IMG/VR virus record: IMGVR_UViG_2778261533_000002
Location: 1-9,795 of that record
DNA length: 9,795 nt
Direction: 5' to 3' (one strand)
Origin: a virus
Taxonomy: Duplodnaviria; Heunggongvirae; Uroviricota; Caudoviricetes
This document shows positions 4,058 through 9,795 of this stretch, piece by piece. Within the stretch, counting starts at the first letter, position 1. Every line of letters begins with the position of its first letter. Under the pieces are notes generated by a model, which was not told where the DNA came from, searched no databases, and saw only the letters and a program-made list of their open reading frames with translations. Both the position numbers and the translations under genes were made by a program.

Positions 4058-4212
4058 CTGTCAGATTCTGACCCGTCAAAATCTGACGCATCAAAATCTG
4101 ACCCGTCAAAATTTGATGCGTCGAAATCTGGCAAAAAAGCGGGTTTTCACCCGTCAGAATCTGGCGGGGATCCGTCAGTAAAATCAAAACATGATCCGTC
4201 AGATAAAAAACC
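4058..4212. repeat. Tandem 15-bp repeats, consensus cCGTCAAAATCTGAc: five contiguous units (4058-4132) plus three degenerate CCGTCAG-initiated copies (4151, 4172, 4196)
   Basis: Direct reading: ctgtcagattctgac / ccgtcaaaatctgac / gcatcaaaatctgac / ccgtcaaaatttgat / gcgtcgaaatctggc. The period is a multiple of 3 and sits in an open frame, where it encodes DPSKS/DASKS-type pentapeptides. Confidence 0.8.
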
Positions 4213-4701: not shown

Positions 4702-5190
4702 ATGAGTCTTTTGAATGACGTTCAGAAATTCATTGAAGCCCATCCGGGCTGTACTTCCGGAGACATTGCGGATGCTTTTGCAGGTTACTCACGGCAGCGC
4801 GTTCTGCAGTCAGCAAGCAAGTTACGTCAGAGTGGGCGTGTGGCTCACCGTTGTGAAGGAGATACACACAGACATTTCCCGCGCCTGACTGAGAGAGCGC
4901 AGGATCCGGAACCACAACCAGTTCGTGAAACCAGACCTGTGCGCAATTTCTATGTCGGCACTAACGACCCGCGGGTGATTTTGTGCCTGACCCGCCAGGC
5001 GGAAGAACTGGAGTCCAGGGGCTTATACCGTCGTGCTGCAACGGTGTGGATGGCGGCATTCCGTGAAAGCCACTCCCAGCCAGAACGAAACAATTTTCTG
5101 GCGCGTCGTGAACGGTGTTTACGGAAAAGCAGTAAGCGGGCTGCATCAGGTGAAGAGTGGTATCTCTCAGGGAATTACGTGGGGGCTTAA
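4702..5190 (+). CDS. PerC-family-like transcriptional regulator with an N-terminal winged-helix-like region (162 aa)
   Basis: ATG at 4702 sits 5 nt after AGGGGG; the track GTG at 4696 is less likely. The C-terminal motif AEELESRGLYRRAATVWMAAF resembles the LE.GLWRRAA.RW core I recall for PerC/Pch proteins. Stop at 5188-5190 overlaps the next start (TAATG). Confidence 0.6.
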   Translation: MSLLNDVQKFIEAHPGCTSGDIADAFAGYSRQRVLQSASKLRQSGRVAHRCEGDTHRHFPRLTERAQDPEPQPVRETRPVRNFYVGTNDPRVILCLTRQAEELESRGLYRRAATVWMAAFRESHSQPERNNFLARRERCLRKSSKRAASGEEWYLSGNYVGA

Positions 5191-5843
5191 TGAGTAATAA
5201 ATATTGCCAGGCGCTGGCGGAACTGCGGAACAAACCAGCCCATGAACTGAAGGAAGTGGGCGATCAGTGGCGCACGCCGGACAACATTTTCTGGGGAATT
5301 AACACTCTGTTTGGCCCGTTTGTTCTGGATCTGTTTACTGACGGTGATAACGCCAAATGTGCTGCGTATTACACGGCGGAAGACAACGCGCTGGCGCATG
5401 ACTGGTCAGAACGCCTTGCGGAGCTTAAAGGTGCTGCCTTTGGTAATCCCCCATACAGCCGCGCCAGTCAGCATGAGGGGCAATACATCACCGGCATGCG
5501 TTACATCATGAAGCATGCCAGTGCCATGCGTGATAAAGGCGGGCGCTATGTTTTCCTGATCAAAGCTGCCACCAGCGAAGTGTGGTGGCCGGAAGATGCA
5601 GATCATATTGCTTTTATTCGCGGGCGTATTGGTTTTGAACTGCCTGCCTGGTTTATCCCGAAGGATGAGAAGCAGGTGCCGACAGGCGCTTTCTTCGCTG
5701 GTGCTATTGCTGTTTTCGACAAGACCTGGAAGGGACCGGCAATCAGCTACATCGGGCGCTATGAACTTGAGGCATGTGGTGAGGCCTTTCTGGCGCAGGT
5801 TCGCCAGCAGGCAGAAAAACTGGTCAGGGAGATGGCGGCATGA
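5190..5843 (+). CDS. Phage Dam-type DNA N6-adenine methyltransferase (217 aa)
   Basis: ATG at 5190 is preceded by GGGGG and overlaps the upstream stop; the track GTG at 5157 is less likely. Motifs [10 protein letters not shown] and FGNPPYS (catalytic NPPY) fit the small phage Dam family found in T1 and lambdoid nin regions. Stop at 5841-5843 overlaps the next ATG (ATGA). Confidence 0.75.
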
Positions 5844-6154
5844 CGACGTTAACTCAATGCCAGCAGCAGGTGCTGGATATGCTGATTTCTTATCAGAAAG
5901 AACGTGGCTTCCCGCCAACCAATCAGGAGGTGGCAACCATGCTGGGATGCATGGCCCGTCTGAAAAAGAACAACAGCGATTTGCACGATTTATTAGTAGA
6001 TTATTATGTAGGTGGTATGACGTTTATGGCGCTTGCCCGTAAACATGGGCGTTCTGATTGCTGGGTTGGGCGCTTATTGCAAAAGGCAGAAGGCATCATT
6101 GAAGGTATGTTGATAATGTTAGAAATAGAATTGGAAATGGACTCAAATATCTAG
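5840..6154 (+). CDS. Q-like late antiterminator (QuuD/21-type short Q) with an atypical LexA-like N-terminus (104 aa)
   Basis: ATGA-coupled to the MTase. The C-terminal two thirds ([35 protein letters not shown]...AEGIIEGML) resemble my recollection of the DLP12 QuuD antiterminator. The N-terminal 36 aa ([33 protein letters not shown]) instead resemble the LexA N-terminal DNA-binding helix pair. The last 20 codons lie in AT-rich sequence. Confidence 0.5.
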
Positions 6155-6281
6155 AAAGATATTTTATGAGTATCTGGATTTTTAATTTGTATTGTTAGCA
6201 TGAAATTAAGGAGGGTGGACTGTTTGTGCTTTATATTAATGTTTTTGTGGGGATTTAATAACCACTGATTTATTTGAGGGT

Positions 6282-6316
6282 GGCGCTAATGTACAAGGTT
6301 TTTAGTAATTAGCGCC
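6282..6316 (+). terminator. Possible intrinsic terminator or hairpin downstream of the Q-like gene
   Basis: Perfect 9-bp inverted repeat GGCGCTAAT/ATTAGCGCC with a 17-nt loop, followed on the plus strand by a U-rich tract (tgctggtttgttattttatttt). It lies 11 nt past the stop of the convergent minus-strand gene, but that strand has no U-run after it. Confidence 0.3.
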
Positions 6317-6326
6317 TGCTGGTTTG

Positions 6327-7778
6327 TTATTTTATTTTGCTTACTATATTTGTAATAAGTGGGTCAAATTTCTCATCAATAATTTCAATATATTTTTTAA
6401 TTGCTAAAGTTCTAATTACTTCCTCCTCACATTCTGCTTCTTTAGCAATTGCTTGAGTGTAATTGTGATGATCACTAATCCCTTCCTTTTTTATTAACCA
6501 ATCAAAATCAATATGATACTCCTTGTAGAGGAATTTTTTTACTTCCTCATGTTGAAATACTTCTACTTCTGGTGGCCTATTGCCAGGGAAAGAAAATAAA
6601 TCATCTTTAATGTTTTCTCCAACATCTGCATCTCTTACGGCAATAACATTAAGGCCTGCTTTCTTGAATACCTCGACTGCTTGTCGGACTGCATCTTTAT
6701 CTCCAATATCAGTGATTTGAATGGATTTAAGAATGTCTCTCCGCTTTGCTCTAATTACTTCACTAAGTAAAACTTTTGCAAACTGGTCTTCTACGCAAAT
6801 ATGCAGCCCTTTAAACTGCCCATCAGACAGTATTGATCTCACATGAGTTGTTGAAATTCCATCTTTGATATAGACACCAGTCTGATCTCTAATAAGTAAT
6901 TTTCGTGCATCAGGAGGTAAAGCATTTAATATCACACTTGAGTGTGTTGATAATATTATTTGATGTTTTCTACGTTGACATACTTCCATTAAATATTTTG
7001 CAAATTCATACTGTGCGCTTTCATGAAGAGATGTTTCTGGTTCTTCTAGTACGAAAAGACTTTGCTCTGGAGCTGTTTCAAGCATATCAACCGTATAAAG
7101 AACTCTTCCTTCGCCAAACCCCATGTTATTTTCAGAATAAGAATACCCAAGTCTTTCAACAATACCAATTTCTGAACGACGTGCTCTATGAGAAATTCCT
7201 TGGAATGCGATATCATCATATGGATGACCTATTATTTTTGCCATCTTCAATATTACTGAATGGTCGACGCTTCTTCTCTCTGTTAAATCAAAGTCTTTAC
7301 CGCCATAAACACTTATATCTCTACGTTCTACTTTTGGAATATAGACAGTAAAACCAATGTAAAAACAGTGTCTTTCTGGTTGTCTTTTATATCCAGACCA
7401 AGAAGACTTTATGCGAGTGACAGTCACATCTTGTGTTTTCGTTGAATCATTTGTTTCATATTTATAAATGACACTGGCGTCATTATCGAAAGGGGCTGGA
7501 TCGGCTTTAGATACAGGGAAAAAATCTTTAATATATAATCTCTTATATTCACGGGCTGTAACTGGTTTTTTATATGCGCATATTGCTAACTGCCCAAGAG
7601 TGCTTTTCCCAGCGCCGTTTAGCCCTGATATTGCAGTTACCGGAAAATTTATATTTAATGTTAGTTTTTTTATTCCTCGAAATCCATTTATCTCTAGACT
7701 TTTAATTACGGAGCCAAAGTTTGAGTATCTATTTTTATCAAAGTACATGCATTTTAGTATATTTTTTATGTCTGACAT
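6327..7778 (-). CDS. ABC-type ATPase fused to a Toprim-like nuclease domain; OLD/PARIS/Gabija-like candidate anti-phage defence protein (483 aa)
   Basis: ATG at 7776-7778 has AGGAAAG upstream and an in-frame TAA two codons before it. Walker A GLNGAGKST (about aa 52-60, read directly from the DNA as GGG CTA AAC GGC GCT GGG AAA AGC ACT). Walker B plus D-loop LFVLEEPETSLH (about 241-252). H-loop ILSTHS (about 275-280). C-terminal Toprim-like signature: CVEDQFAKVLL (Glu about 330) and, about 55 aa later, AVRDADVGE (DxDxG, about 383-387). Confidence 0.7.
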   Translation of the reverse strand: MSDIKNILKCMYFDKNRYSNFGSVIKSLEINGFRGIKKLTLNINFPVTAISGLNGAGKSTLGQLAICAYKKPVTAREYKRLYIKDFFPVSKADPAPFDNDASVIYKYETNDSTKTQDVTVTRIKSSWSGYKRQPERHCFYIGFTVYIPKVERRDISVYGGKDFDLTERRSVDHSVILKMAKIIGHPYDDIAFQGISHRARRSEIGIVERLGYSYSENNMGFGEGRVLYTVDMLETAPEQSLFVLEEPETSLHESAQYEFAKYLMEVCQRRKHQIILSTHSSVILNALPPDARKLLIRDQTGVYIKDGISTTHVRSILSDGQFKGLHICVEDQFAKVLLSEVIRAKRRDILKSIQITDIGDKDAVRQAVEVFKKAGLNVIAVRDADVGENIKDDLFSFPGNRPPEVEVFQHEEVKKFLYKEYHIDFDWLIKKEGISDHHNYTQAIAKEAECEEEVIRTLAIKKYIEIIDEKFDPLITNIVSKIK

Positions 7779-8043
7779 TTTTTATCTTTCCTGATATGAA
7801 TGAGAGTTATCTTTAGAAAAACAATAAATTTATAACATTTAGAGATGTATTCATCAATGATTGGGTAAATATCGTGCATTTGTTGTTTTAAAATCAACCA
7901 AGAATGATTTTTATAATTATGTCAATTGCCTTATTATCAATATGGTAATGTTTTCTCAATCTAATTATTGGGGGGGAATATATTATTTACAATCGTAAAT
8001 AATCAGATATGCTCTCAAGAGTGGTTACTTCGCCACACAACTT

Positions 8044-8069
8044 AAACCCGCCGTCGAGCGGGTTTTTTT
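8044..8069 (+). terminator. Rho-independent terminator (plus strand)
   Basis: aaacccgc-cgtcga-gcgggttt hairpin (GC core CCCGC/GCGGG) followed directly by a T run of 7 (8063-8069). It marks the right edge of the AT-rich island. Confidence 0.65.
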
Positions 8070-8191
8070 GTACCTGTAAACCTGGTGCAGTACGGTAAAC
8101 ACGCTGGTGGTCGTGAATACTGACTTTTTATCTTGCTGGCTTTTTAGACAAGAGTTATTGGTATGTCATGTTAACCAGAAGGAAAAAAGAC

Positions 8192-8386
8192 ATGTTAAAA
8201 CAGCAAGATATGACAGAAACGGCGAAAGTTGTTTTTAATGAATTAAGCATCGAACCGGCAACAGTCGGGGAGATTGCACAAAACACATATCTTTCACGCG
8301 AACGCTGTCAGTTAATACTGACCCAGTTGGTTATGGCGGGGCTGGCAGATTACCAGTTCGGCTGTTACAGACGCCTTCAGCTATGA
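8192..8386 (+). CDS. Small winged-helix DNA-binding protein (64 aa), possibly PapI/FaeA-like
   Basis: ATG at 8192 lies 8 nt after AGAAGGA; the track ATG at 8168 lacks an SD. The segment ATVGEIAQNTYLSRERCQLILTQLVMAGLA has the spacing of an HTH recognition helix followed by a wing, comparable to PapI as I recall it. Confidence 0.55.
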   Translation: MLKQQDMTETAKVVFNELSIEPATVGEIAQNTYLSRERCQLILTQLVMAGLADYQFGCYRRLQL

Positions 8387-8535
8387 AGGACTTTTAATTT
8401 GTGAAAATGGGCGGCTGGTGGGTGTTGGTAGCACCTGCCAGCCATTCGCTCATGCTTACTGGTCACAAGCGAACCACGGCCCACTGCTTTAGCGCAAAAG
8501 CAGAGTGAGCCTACCAGAGTTACGCTTACTGATCC

Positions 8536-9588
8536 ATGAAAAATACTGTAAAAATAAACAGTGTTGATTTAATCAACGCTGATTGCCTGCATTTTATTCA
8601 GTCCCTGCCTGATGATTCCATTGACCTGATTGTTACCGATCCGCCGTACTTCAAGGTGAAACCCAACGGTTGGGACAATCAGTGGAAAGGGGACGAAGAT
8701 TACCTTAAGTGGCTGGACCACTGTCTGGCCCAGTTCTGGCGGGTGTTGAAACCTGCCGGAAGCCTTTACCTGTTCTGTGGGCATCGCCTGGCATCTGATA
8801 TTGAGATCATGATGCGTGAACGTTTCAACGTGCTTAACCATATCATCTGGGCGAAGCCGTCCGGACGTTGGAATGGGTGTAATAAAGAAAGTCTGCGCGC
8901 ATATTTTCCTGCCACAGAGCGCGTTCTGTTTGCTGAACATTACCAGGGGCCATATCGCGGCAAAAGTGACGGCTATGCGGCAAAAGAAAGGGAACTCAAA
9001 CAGCACATAATGGCACCGCTGATATCGTATTTCAGGGATGCTCGTGCCGAACTGGGTATAACGGCAAAACAAATTGCCGAAGCCACAGGTAAGAAAAATA
9101 TGGTTTCCCACTGGTTTGGTGCCAGTCAGTGGCAGTTGCCGAATGAGGCTGACTATCGGAAGTTACAGGCACTGTTTTCCCGTATAGCGGCAGAGAAGTT
9201 TCAGGAACAACAACTGGAACAACCACACCACCAGCTGGTGGCATCTTATGATTCACTGAATCGCAAATATTCTGAATTGCTGGATGAGTTTAAATCTCTC
9301 CGGCGCTATTTCTCCGTATCAGTCTCCGTGCCTTATACCGATGTCTGGATGCATAAACCCGTTCAGTTCTACCCGGGTAAACATCCGTGTGAGAAACCGG
9401 CGGATATGCTCAGGCAAATAATCAATGCCAGTAGTCGACCTGGTGATCTGGTTGCTGATTTTTTTATGGGATCCGGTTCCACAATAAAAGCAGCAATGGC
9501 GCTGGGGCGTCGGGCCTTAGGTGTTGAGCTTGAGTCAGAGCGGTTTAACCAGACAGTGAAAGAGATAAACGAGCTGGTGGGGAAATAA
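8536..9588 (+). CDS. DNA methyltransferase, beta-class N6-adenine/N4-cytosine type (motif IV before motif I), 350 aa; no cognate endonuclease in the window
   Basis: N-terminal [12 protein letters not shown] (catalytic DPPY) and C-terminal [17 protein letters not shown] (AdoMet-binding FxGxG). The central target-recognition region contains an HTH-like segment ([12 protein letters not shown]). A GATC sits immediately 5' of the ATG. Confidence 0.85.
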
Positions 9589-9594
9589 TCTGGT

Positions 9595-9620
9595 GGCCAC
9601 GTCAGGTGGCCTTTTTATTT
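9595..9620 (+). terminator. Rho-independent terminator after the MTase, in the position of a late-region tR'-like terminator upstream of the holin start
   Basis: ggccac-gtcag-gtggcc hairpin (9595-9611) followed by TTTTTATTT (9612-9620), 7 nt after the MTase stop and 36 nt before the holin-like ATG. Confidence 0.65.
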
Positions 9621-9655: not shown

Positions 9656-9784
9656 ATGAAATCCATGGATAAGTTAACAACGGGTGTCGCCTATGGCACC
9701 TCAGCAGGTAGTGCCGGGTACTGGTTTTTACAGTTTGAACCGTCCCGGGAATCCTGGAGACTAAACTCCCTGAGAAAGAGGTAA
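9656..9784 (+). pseudogene. N-terminal remnant of an S21/EssD-type pinholin (dual-start MKSM motif and first transmembrane/SAR segment only)
   Basis: ATG at 9656 is preceded by [33 protein letters not shown] matches the first 26 residues of phage 21 S as I recall them. The frame then diverges ([16 protein letters not shown]) and stops at 9782-9784, and no frame in the remaining window encodes a second TMD. A new RBS-ATG (AAAGAGG, ATG at 9789) follows. Confidence 0.45.
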
Positions 9785-9795
9785 ACAGGATGACT

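Follow-up and report, generated by a model that had tools for sequence, protein, structure and literature searches.

Two orphan adenine methyltransferase genes retained in a degraded SfV-like prophage of Escherichia coli

The DNA analysed here (hereafter the window, 9,795 nucleotides) is an entire E. coli contig that carries a degraded SfV-like lambdoid prophage. The repressor region, the start of the replication gene and most of the Q gene have been deleted. A deletion scar is preserved as the plus-strand ORF at 5840-6154, in which a LexA-like N-terminus is fused in frame to the C-terminus of Q (Pfam LexA_DNA_bind at residues 1-36, Phage_antitermQ at residues 34-99); the 2.6-kb deletion behind it removed RusA, KilA-N, DUF968 and most of Q, and its breakpoints were mapped by BLAST at 14860/17467 on an intact prophage (L001). 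At the right-hand end only the 5' fragment of a holin gene is left (9656-9735, plus strand, PF04971). Homology to the intact prophage stops at 9735, where the gene is cut by an IS3-family terminus (9736-9795), and the terminal 66 bases of the window recur as IS3-family transposase ends in 3038 genomes. That the element is a deletion-riddled remnant had been overlooked in the first-pass annotation, which had drawn attention to two unrelated orphan DNA methyltransferases (MTases).

The first of these genes (5190-5843, plus strand) is intact and encodes a phage Dam-type N6-adenine MTase of 217 amino acids. Its 5' end overlaps the preceding stop codon (TAATG) and its own stop overlaps the next start (ATGA); the neighbours are a PerC-like gene and the LexA-Q fusion ORF. 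The protein matches Pfam PF05869 (E=4.3e-45, 153.9 bits, cutoff 28.1) and, over model positions 1-165 of 165, the NCBIfam equivalog TIGR01712, phage_N6A_met (8.2e-76, 253 bits, cutoff 97), so that its identification as a small phage Dam holds good. Residues 86-89 form the catalytic motif NPPY, DLFTD lies at residue 47, and the columns W27, T29, P30, L46, D47 and N86-S90 are invariant across this protein, T1 Dam and VT2 Dam. A PDB sequence search with Dam gave no match. The enzymes of T1 and VT2-Sakai (M.EcoT1Dam, M.EcoVT2Dam) are GATC-specific small phage Dams of PF05869, and share with the window protein the Pfam/NCBIfam family and the W-x-T-P, LD and NPPYS motifs. However, they are only 23-31% identical to it, and they lack its insertion after NPPY and its longer C-terminus. 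Much closer are the Dam proteins of SfV (98.2% identity) and of the E. coli O104:H4 C227-11 prophage (99.1%), and the gene was found in 1725 of the 5426 complete E. coli genomes. Given the 98% identity to SfV Dam and the equivalog-level NCBIfam match, the enzyme most likely methylates GATC. Allison et al. 2002 reportedly found that SfV encodes multiple methylases and are said to have confirmed orf-41 experimentally as a Dam methylase. A kinship of the small Dam with the non-specific MTases Hia5/Hin1523 was weighed and dismissed, since these are alpha-class relatives of EcoDam. RefSeq phage records label the Dam "phosphoadenosine phosphosulfate reductase", which is an artefact.

The second gene (8536-9588, plus strand), likewise intact, encodes a beta-class N6-adenine MTase of 350 amino acids, predicted to be sequence-non-specific and belonging to the family of M.EcoGII, which has become a routine tool of chromatin footprinting. 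The beta-class assignment made earlier is confirmed: residues 29-341 match PF01555 (N6_N4_Mtase, E=2.2e-42), the motifs follow the beta-class order, DPPY at residue 35 and then FMGSG at residue 310, and among the beta-class MTases matched in a PDB sequence search are RsrI, MboIIA and CcrM. At the family level the two MTases are unrelated, as had been proposed (pairwise BLASTP E=0.084), although both are (D/N)PPY amino-MTases. The late protein is 100% identical to WP_000799656.1 of E2528-C1, and its identity is 98.3% to SfV orf48, 89.6% to Anc291, 81.4% to M.EcoGII of C227-11 and 71% to SUPREM. From M.EcoGII (349 aa, with an identical motif order) it differs by 65 substitutions, and it belongs to the SfV orf48 allele group; the alignment has no internal gaps, the difference of one residue in length lying at the C-terminus, and in the four-helix-bundle TRD (residues 160-237) the identity is 76.9%. 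Aligned with the published M.EcoGII sequence, the C227-11 protein agrees at 345 of 348 positions; the differences at the other three resemble machine-reading errors.

Several features surround the late MTase gene on the plus strand. A terminator scan identified an intrinsic terminator upstream (8044-8070, late-operon tR'-like), whose 8-bp stem includes 5 GC pairs and precedes a T-run; its SfV homologue is the terminator annotated at 33675-33710. A second one directly 3' of the gene (9595-9620) corresponds to that annotated in SfV at 35222-35253. About 30 nt upstream of the first terminator, the promoter scan yielded a candidate late promoter, TTTACA-16-TATGCT (7986-8013), which is a consensus match only. 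In C227-11 and LR-06 the gap between the Q stop and the cargo gene is just 12-14 bp, which would place the late promoter downstream of the cargo. Between terminator and MTase is an orf47-like gene (8192-8386; 64 aa; phrog_331, 1.8e-35), whose AF2 model (pLDDT 90.6) adopts a winged-helix fold with IclR-type N-terminal domains as the best match (TM 0.84). It is followed by a structured 5' leader of the MTase gene (8387-8535; MFE -57.1 kcal/mol, z = -2.66), which matched no Rfam family; the sole output of the Rfam search was a spurious miRNA match on the ori iterons.

Concerning other phages, the order Q, small winged-helix ORF, MTase and holin recurs in E. coli, Klebsiella and Salmonella. In these three groups the orf47-like proteins encoded upstream of M.EcoGII-family genes are 54-98% identical and the leader hairpin, located at 8405-8450 in the window, is nearly invariant. 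In Erwinia the MTase likewise lies between Q and holin, and the small ORF is absent. Overall, the MTase comes after Q and before the lysis genes in C227-11, E2528-C1, LR-06 and SfV and at the Klebsiella, Salmonella and Erwinia loci, the Q of the intact E2528-C1-type prophage being 123 aa long; the Klebsiella and Salmonella phages with the module possess an additional early-region MTase, of varying family. Among the 5426 complete E. coli genomes the gene or module occurs in 1148-1410 (1148 for the gene). The late MTase is therefore part of a conserved late-operon leader module, and its earlier assignment to the cargo region has to be abandoned. SfV carries the same Q-holin module although it lacks the ATPase gene.

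The cargo proper is a low-GC gene on the minus strand (6327-7778) encoding an OLD-like ATP-dependent nuclease of 483 amino acids (Pfam AAA_15/AAA_21). The PADLOC candidate HEC-04, itself uncharacterised, matches it best (3.9e-47); the C-terminal region matches the PADLOC model ATPase-Toprim_I-B (2.5e-22), as in class 1 OLD, but similarity to a solved OLD nuclease structure is weak (PDB 6p74, 5.8e-07 over about 60 residues). With P2 Old and the class 1 OLD nucleases it has in common that it is a single-gene, prophage-borne ABC-ATPase without a conserved partner. Among 57 homologous loci from many phyla, clustering of the neighbours revealed no conserved one, and tblastn with the window MTases as queries found no relative of either within 7 kb, except at one locus (L012), where a single weak beta-class match at the motif level lies near the ATPase homologue. 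The gene is present in only 11 of the 5426 E. coli genomes, against 1148 for the late MTase gene, and base composition also differs (GC 0.32-0.37 in the ATPase region, 0.48-0.51 in the late MTase, about 0.54 in Dam), in agreement with the separate acquisition suggested previously. In other phages the slot between Q and orf47 is filled by unrelated genes, of which those of LR-06 and C227-11 had no Pfam or PADLOC match. A sister contig has lost most of the ATPase gene and kept both MTases at 100% identity. We conclude that the ATPase is an independent, stand-alone OLD-like defence candidate inserted in a variable cargo slot.

Neither MTase is adjoined by a restriction endonuclease, as first noted: the immediate neighbours are phage regulatory or lysis genes, including, for the late MTase, the 64-aa winged-helix ORF and the holin fragment. 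The orphan status extends to intact relatives, and the sole nuclease in the vicinity, the OLD-like ATPase, is distributed independently.

Both MTases were already known, being annotated in the SfV genome record (U82619 / NC_003444), where dam (orf41) and orf48 have the same order and relative positions as in the window and the terminators flanking the late MTase are conserved. Unlike the degraded window, SfV is viable: it possesses cI/cro, replication genes and a complete lysis cassette, and its Q allele is a different one. The window, for its part, has an ATPase gene between the Q remnant and orf47 that SfV does not have. The viable phage mEp460 also possesses both MTase genes, and the pair is a standard feature of SfV-like phages; the first-pass annotation had overlooked this textbook association. 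In C227-11 the gene order is PerC, 217-aa Dam, LexA-like, RusA, KilA-N, DUF968, Q, cargo, orf47 and M.EcoGII. There, too, M.EcoGII follows Q/orf47 and precedes the lysis genes, and the prophage has this same 217-aa Dam, whose REBASE name may be M.EcoGV. Compared with C227-11, the window lacks Q, and its late MTase gene is not followed by the tRNA and esterase genes found behind M.EcoGII.

From these data we consider it very probable that the window is a decayed SfV-like prophage that keeps a GATC-methylating phage Dam and a non-specific late MTase, which in intact relatives would play a sequential anti-restriction role. In an intact phage, Dam, encoded in the early right operon, would be made during early replication, and the non-specific MTase only after Q antitermination, shortly before packaging. 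Progeny DNA would then leave the cell heavily N6-methylated and could resist many restriction enzymes of the next host. In the lysogen both MTase genes would be off, and non-specific methylation would be harmful there. This timing is suggested by gene position; that the late MTase would be off in the lysogen is likewise suggested by positional evidence, namely the flanking terminators and the Q deletion. Anti-restriction is the accepted role for the M.EcoGII family, whose members M.EcoGII and M.EcoGI, from C227-11 prophages, methylate adenine non-specifically, are silent in the lysogen and do harm under constitutive expression (Murray et al. 2018, PMC5778455).

The presence of two modification activities had also been taken to hint at epigenetic control, and one or both MTases might indeed act as regulators in the lysogen, for instance with phage Dam supplementing host Dam and so stabilising lysogeny or changing host gene expression. 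Lysogens of the Stx phage Phi24B express a phage-encoded Dam, stable 933W lysogeny needs host Dam (PMC3342100), and a separate dam promoter is annotated in SfV. However, that promoter is weak and has a changed -35 hexamer in the window; host Dam is already present in E. coli, so a second GATC methylase would add little in a lysogen; GATC sites in the window are neither avoided nor enriched (33 observed, 35 expected); and the M.EcoGI/II-type genes are transcriptionally silent in C227-11 and EC958. We therefore regard the regulatory role as quite unlikely, and of the two purposes proposed earlier the anti-restriction one is preferred.

As judged from its sequence, the late enzyme most likely acts on adenines in nearly every sequence context, although it may have some sequence preference, given its 19% divergence from M.EcoGII (23% in the TRD). 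That divergence, TRD changes included, together with the generic RefSeq name "site-specific DNA-methyltransferase", could be taken to indicate a conventional site-specific orphan MTase. On the other hand, all characterised members and ancestors that bracket the late MTase are non-specific (M.EcoGI, M.EcoGII, Anc291 at 90% and SUPREM at 71%), and the nearest site-specific relative, M.PflMI, is just 27% identical to M.EcoGII (PMC11551740). In the same work the reconstructed ancestors all methylated DNA, and no sequence motif in RNA emerged for M.EcoGII, Anc291 or SUPREM (PMC11551740). Site specificity of the conventional kind is thus very improbable, and homology, which had been proposed as the means of assigning specificities, points to GATC for Dam and to adenine without sequence specificity for the late MTase.

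The idea of a modification-sensitive pair, with the late MTase shielding the cell or the element against the ATPase-nuclease next to it, an idea to which the distance of 757 bp between the genes and a weak match of the ATPase to MADS MAD3 (26 bits, far under the NCBIfam cutoff of 420) might lend some colour, is largely refuted and scarcely credible, because the MTase module is ~100 times commoner than the ATPase, SfV carries it without the ATPase, the ATPase loci bring neither relatives of the MTases (bar the weak match described above) nor a conserved neighbour, the sister contig keeps the MTases after losing most of the ATPase gene, the two genes differ in GC content (0.33-0.36 in the ATPase, 0.48-0.51 in the MTase) and lie on opposite strands, unrelated cargo takes the same slot elsewhere, and an MTase of a family silent in lysogens could not protect continuously.

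Returning to the sequential anti-restriction role, it belongs to intact relatives. Here, with Q largely deleted, the repressor region and part of the replication gene also gone, and the holin gene interrupted by the IS, the late MTase is probably silent, and it may be that neither MTase gene of the remnant is expressed. The pair is here an inherited relic, not a system selected in this strain. As such the finding is ordinary and adds little that is new. Its practical value lies in annotation: the RefSeq name of the late gene should be read as denoting an M.EcoGII-type, probably non-specific, enzyme. It is conceivable, if unlikely, that orf47, the structured 150-nt leader and the MTase form a dedicated module gating a toxic MTase, and that the Q of a co-resident prophage activates the relic in trans. 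The terminator, orf47 and the leader, and probably the late promoter, survive in the remnant, so a compatible Q could act in this way. If this is true, the trans-activated relic MTase would give the DNA of another phage broad anti-restriction methylation.

Two DNA methyltransferase genes, unrelated in sequence (pairwise E = 0.084), are present in the window as the first-pass annotation had described, at 5190-5843 and 8536-9588, both on the forward strand. The genes that flank them (PerC-like regulator, LexA/Q fusion ORF, 64-aa winged-helix ORF, holin fragment) include no restriction endonuclease, so that both can be regarded as orphans. The catalytic motif is kept in both products (NPPY at residues 86-89 of the first; DPPY at residue 35 of the second, followed at residue 310 by FMGSG in the order of the beta class). 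The pair as a feature is already known: the 2002 genome paper of phage SfV reportedly described multiple methylases, with Dam confirmed experimentally.

The first enzyme (217 aa) matches Pfam PF05869 'Dam' (E = 4.3e-45) and, with 253 bits, clears the 97-bit cutoff of the NCBIfam equivalog TIGR01712 'phage N-6-adenine-methyltransferase'. It is 98.2% identical to SfV Dam (orf41) and 99.1% identical to a 217-aa protein of a prophage in E. coli O104:H4 C227-11, whereas the Dam proteins of T1 and VT2-Sakai, although of the same family, are only 23-31% identical. The gene was found in 1725 of 5426 complete E. coli genomes. RefSeq phage records such as NC_003444 (11023-11676 in our locus L002) call phage Dam 'phosphoadenosine phosphosulfate reductase', a label that is apparently an artefact of phrog_33262, a PHROG built on fusion proteins.

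The second, late enzyme (350 aa; PF01555 N6_N4_Mtase, E = 2.2e-42) aligns with solved beta-class methyltransferases such as RsrI, MboIIA and CcrM. It is 100% identical to a protein of E. coli E2528-C1, 98.3% to SfV orf48 and 81.4% to a 349-aa protein of C227-11, which itself shares 345 of 348 aligned residues with published M.EcoGII; the other three were apparently misread by machine from the supplementary PDF. Judged by its sequence, the late enzyme is a member of the well-studied M.EcoGII family. M.EcoGII and its paralogue M.EcoGI (95% identical) methylate adenine in any context and are carried on prophages, where they are silent in the lysogen, their constitutive expression being harmful (PMC5778455). 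Every reconstructed ancestor of the clade methylated DNA, nanopore sequencing revealed no RNA sequence motif for M.EcoGII or for the clade members Anc291 and SUPREM, and the nearest site-specific enzyme, M.PflMI, is just 27% identical to M.EcoGII (PMC11551740). Methylome studies of O111 STEC and ST131 list homologues as 'nonspecific' orphan methyltransferases, inactive or untranscribed in lysogens. The late enzyme is 89.6% identical to Anc291 and 71% to SUPREM and, because the characterised relatives and reconstructed ancestors that bracket it are non-specific and the nearest site-specific enzyme is so distant, alignment places it well within the non-specific clade.

The gene order around M.EcoGII in the C227-11 prophage (PerC, 217-aa Dam, LexA-like, RusA, KilA-N, DUF968, Q, reverse-strand cargo, the small ORF orf47, methyltransferase) is that of the intact relatives of the window. 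The more distant M.EcoGII-family genes of Klebsiella, Salmonella and Erwinia (78-80% identical) always lie between Q and holin, whatever the family of Q or holin. In the phages concerned from Klebsiella and Salmonella, the early right region encodes a second methyltransferase, whose family varies: it is of MT-A70 or D12 class in Klebsiella, and in Salmonella it is a C5+D12 fusion of 817 aa. Its gene is located just upstream of Q in two loci (L067 and L068) and between the replication gene and RusA in another (L069); LR-06 and SfIV have none. Since the early enzymes differ among these Klebsiella and Salmonella prophages (L067-L071), the early position behaves as an exchangeable module, and their occurrence alongside the late M.EcoGII type makes the pairing of an early methyltransferase with a late non-specific one a recurrent phage design. 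In the window the late gene lies between two intrinsic terminators (8044-8070 and 9595-9620) that the SfV record annotates as well, an arrangement that fits Q-dependent late expression.

The first-pass annotation had instead placed the late methyltransferase in a cargo region and considered that it might protect against a modification-sensitive nuclease encoded beside it. The candidate is the reverse-strand gene at 6327-7778, encoding an OLD-like ABC-type ATPase-nuclease (PADLOC HEC-04, 3.9e-47; also ATPase-Toprim_I-B, with a weak match to the solved OLD nuclease 6p74), named 'ATP-dependent nuclease' in RefSeq. With its flanks it occurs in 11 of the 5426 complete E. coli genomes, against 1148 for the late methyltransferase and 1410 for the orf47/methyltransferase upstream segment, and SfV has the methyltransferase but not the ATPase. 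Around 57 ATPase homologues (42-78% identical; Proteobacteria, Bacteroidota, Actinomycetota and other phyla), a screen confined to relatives of the window's two methyltransferases found none within 7 kb except for a weak beta-class motif match in L012; nor do the 57 have a conserved neighbour in common. A sister E. coli contig (L065) is 100% identical to the window outside the ATPase region, where an IS5-like element (L065 6819-8014) has taken the place of 1.26 kb (window 6755-8011) comprising the ATPase promoter region and, from its 5' end, two-thirds of the gene. From Q to the late terminator (window 6155-8044; L006 16853-17872, L007 4448-5909 and L072 2182-4578 in other loci) stretches a slot whose reverse-strand cargo varies. 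The window has the OLD-like ATPase there and an Erwinia prophage a PDC-S06/AAA_13 defence candidate (ATPase), while LR-06 and C227-11 carry genes that match no family; in SfV the slot is empty. From this slot, the independent distribution of the ATPase and its absence from SfV, it follows that the ATPase is cargo and the late methyltransferase backbone, and the proposed self-protection is not borne out. The difference in base composition formerly cited in favour of separate acquisition is real.

Directly upstream of the late gene, orf47 (named as in SfV; 8192-8386, forward strand) encodes a 64-aa protein confidently predicted to be a small winged helix (pLDDT 90.6; best match to IclR-type N-terminal domains, TM 0.84). 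It keeps this position in E. coli, Klebsiella and Salmonella, while the Erwinia locus is without a homologue. Regulation of the methyltransferase is a possible role for orf47. The 150-nt leader that follows (8387-8535, forward strand) stays near-invariant across genera, in spite of divergence in the genes on either side. A strong hairpin and further stems make it more highly structured than its shuffled versions (z = -2.66); it has no match to an Rfam family, and covariation support is weak because the sequences are so similar. Together, orf47 and the structured leader may point to a control system devoted to a toxic enzyme.

The window spans the whole of NMHY01000063.1, a contig of 9795 bp from an E. 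coli assembly. Its left end (1-63), recognised by eye, is presumably an IS1 terminus, and the homologous stretch of LR-06 overlaps with a gene annotated as IS1 transposase. At the right end, an IS3-family terminus (9736-9795) interrupts the holin gene, the break falling at 9735/9736. Two tandem tyrosine integrases lie on the reverse strand, one (236-1339) from a different island, likewise beside an SfV-like prophage in LR-06, and one (1461-2624) of SfV phage type; ARAGORN called no tRNA at the tRNA-Thr 3' fragment (about 1398-1446). From 1398 on, the contig matches SfV-like lambdoid prophages at tRNA-Thr, such as that of E2528-C1, with 99% identity and keeps 8.3 kb of an equivalent 15.3 kb. 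Most of yfdR/yfdQ/yfdP and the entire cI/cro immunity region are missing, the O-like replication gene has lost its 5' portion, and a 2.6-kb block (LexA-like C-terminus, RusA, KilA-N, DUF968 and most of Q) is gone as well. This last deletion, with 3-4 bp of microhomology at its junction, generated the fusion ORF at 5840-6154 (forward strand), in which 36 aa of the LexA-like N-terminus are in frame with the C-terminal 68 aa of Q; in RefSeq its product goes by 'antiterminator Q family protein' (WP_097412898.1), and only two contigs on record carry it. Given these deletions and the interrupted holin, the element is a prophage remnant lacking repressor, complete replication initiator, antiterminator and lysis cassette. 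Within the truncated replication gene a 15-bp iteron, TCTGACCCGTCAAAA, is repeated four and a third times (4067-4130), presumably as the phage origin; an Rfam mir-5880 match there is spurious and produced by the iterons.

As Q is deleted, the late methyltransferase gene is probably silent in this remnant. The anti-restriction role suggested by the first-pass annotation is supported, without the cargo status and the nuclease link. Lambda and P22 DNA is left under-methylated by host Dam. Most likely, the phage Dam would supplement the methylation of GATC sites in rapidly replicating phage DNA and the late enzyme would then blanket progeny DNA with m6A ahead of packaging, so that the covered DNA could escape restriction in the next host.
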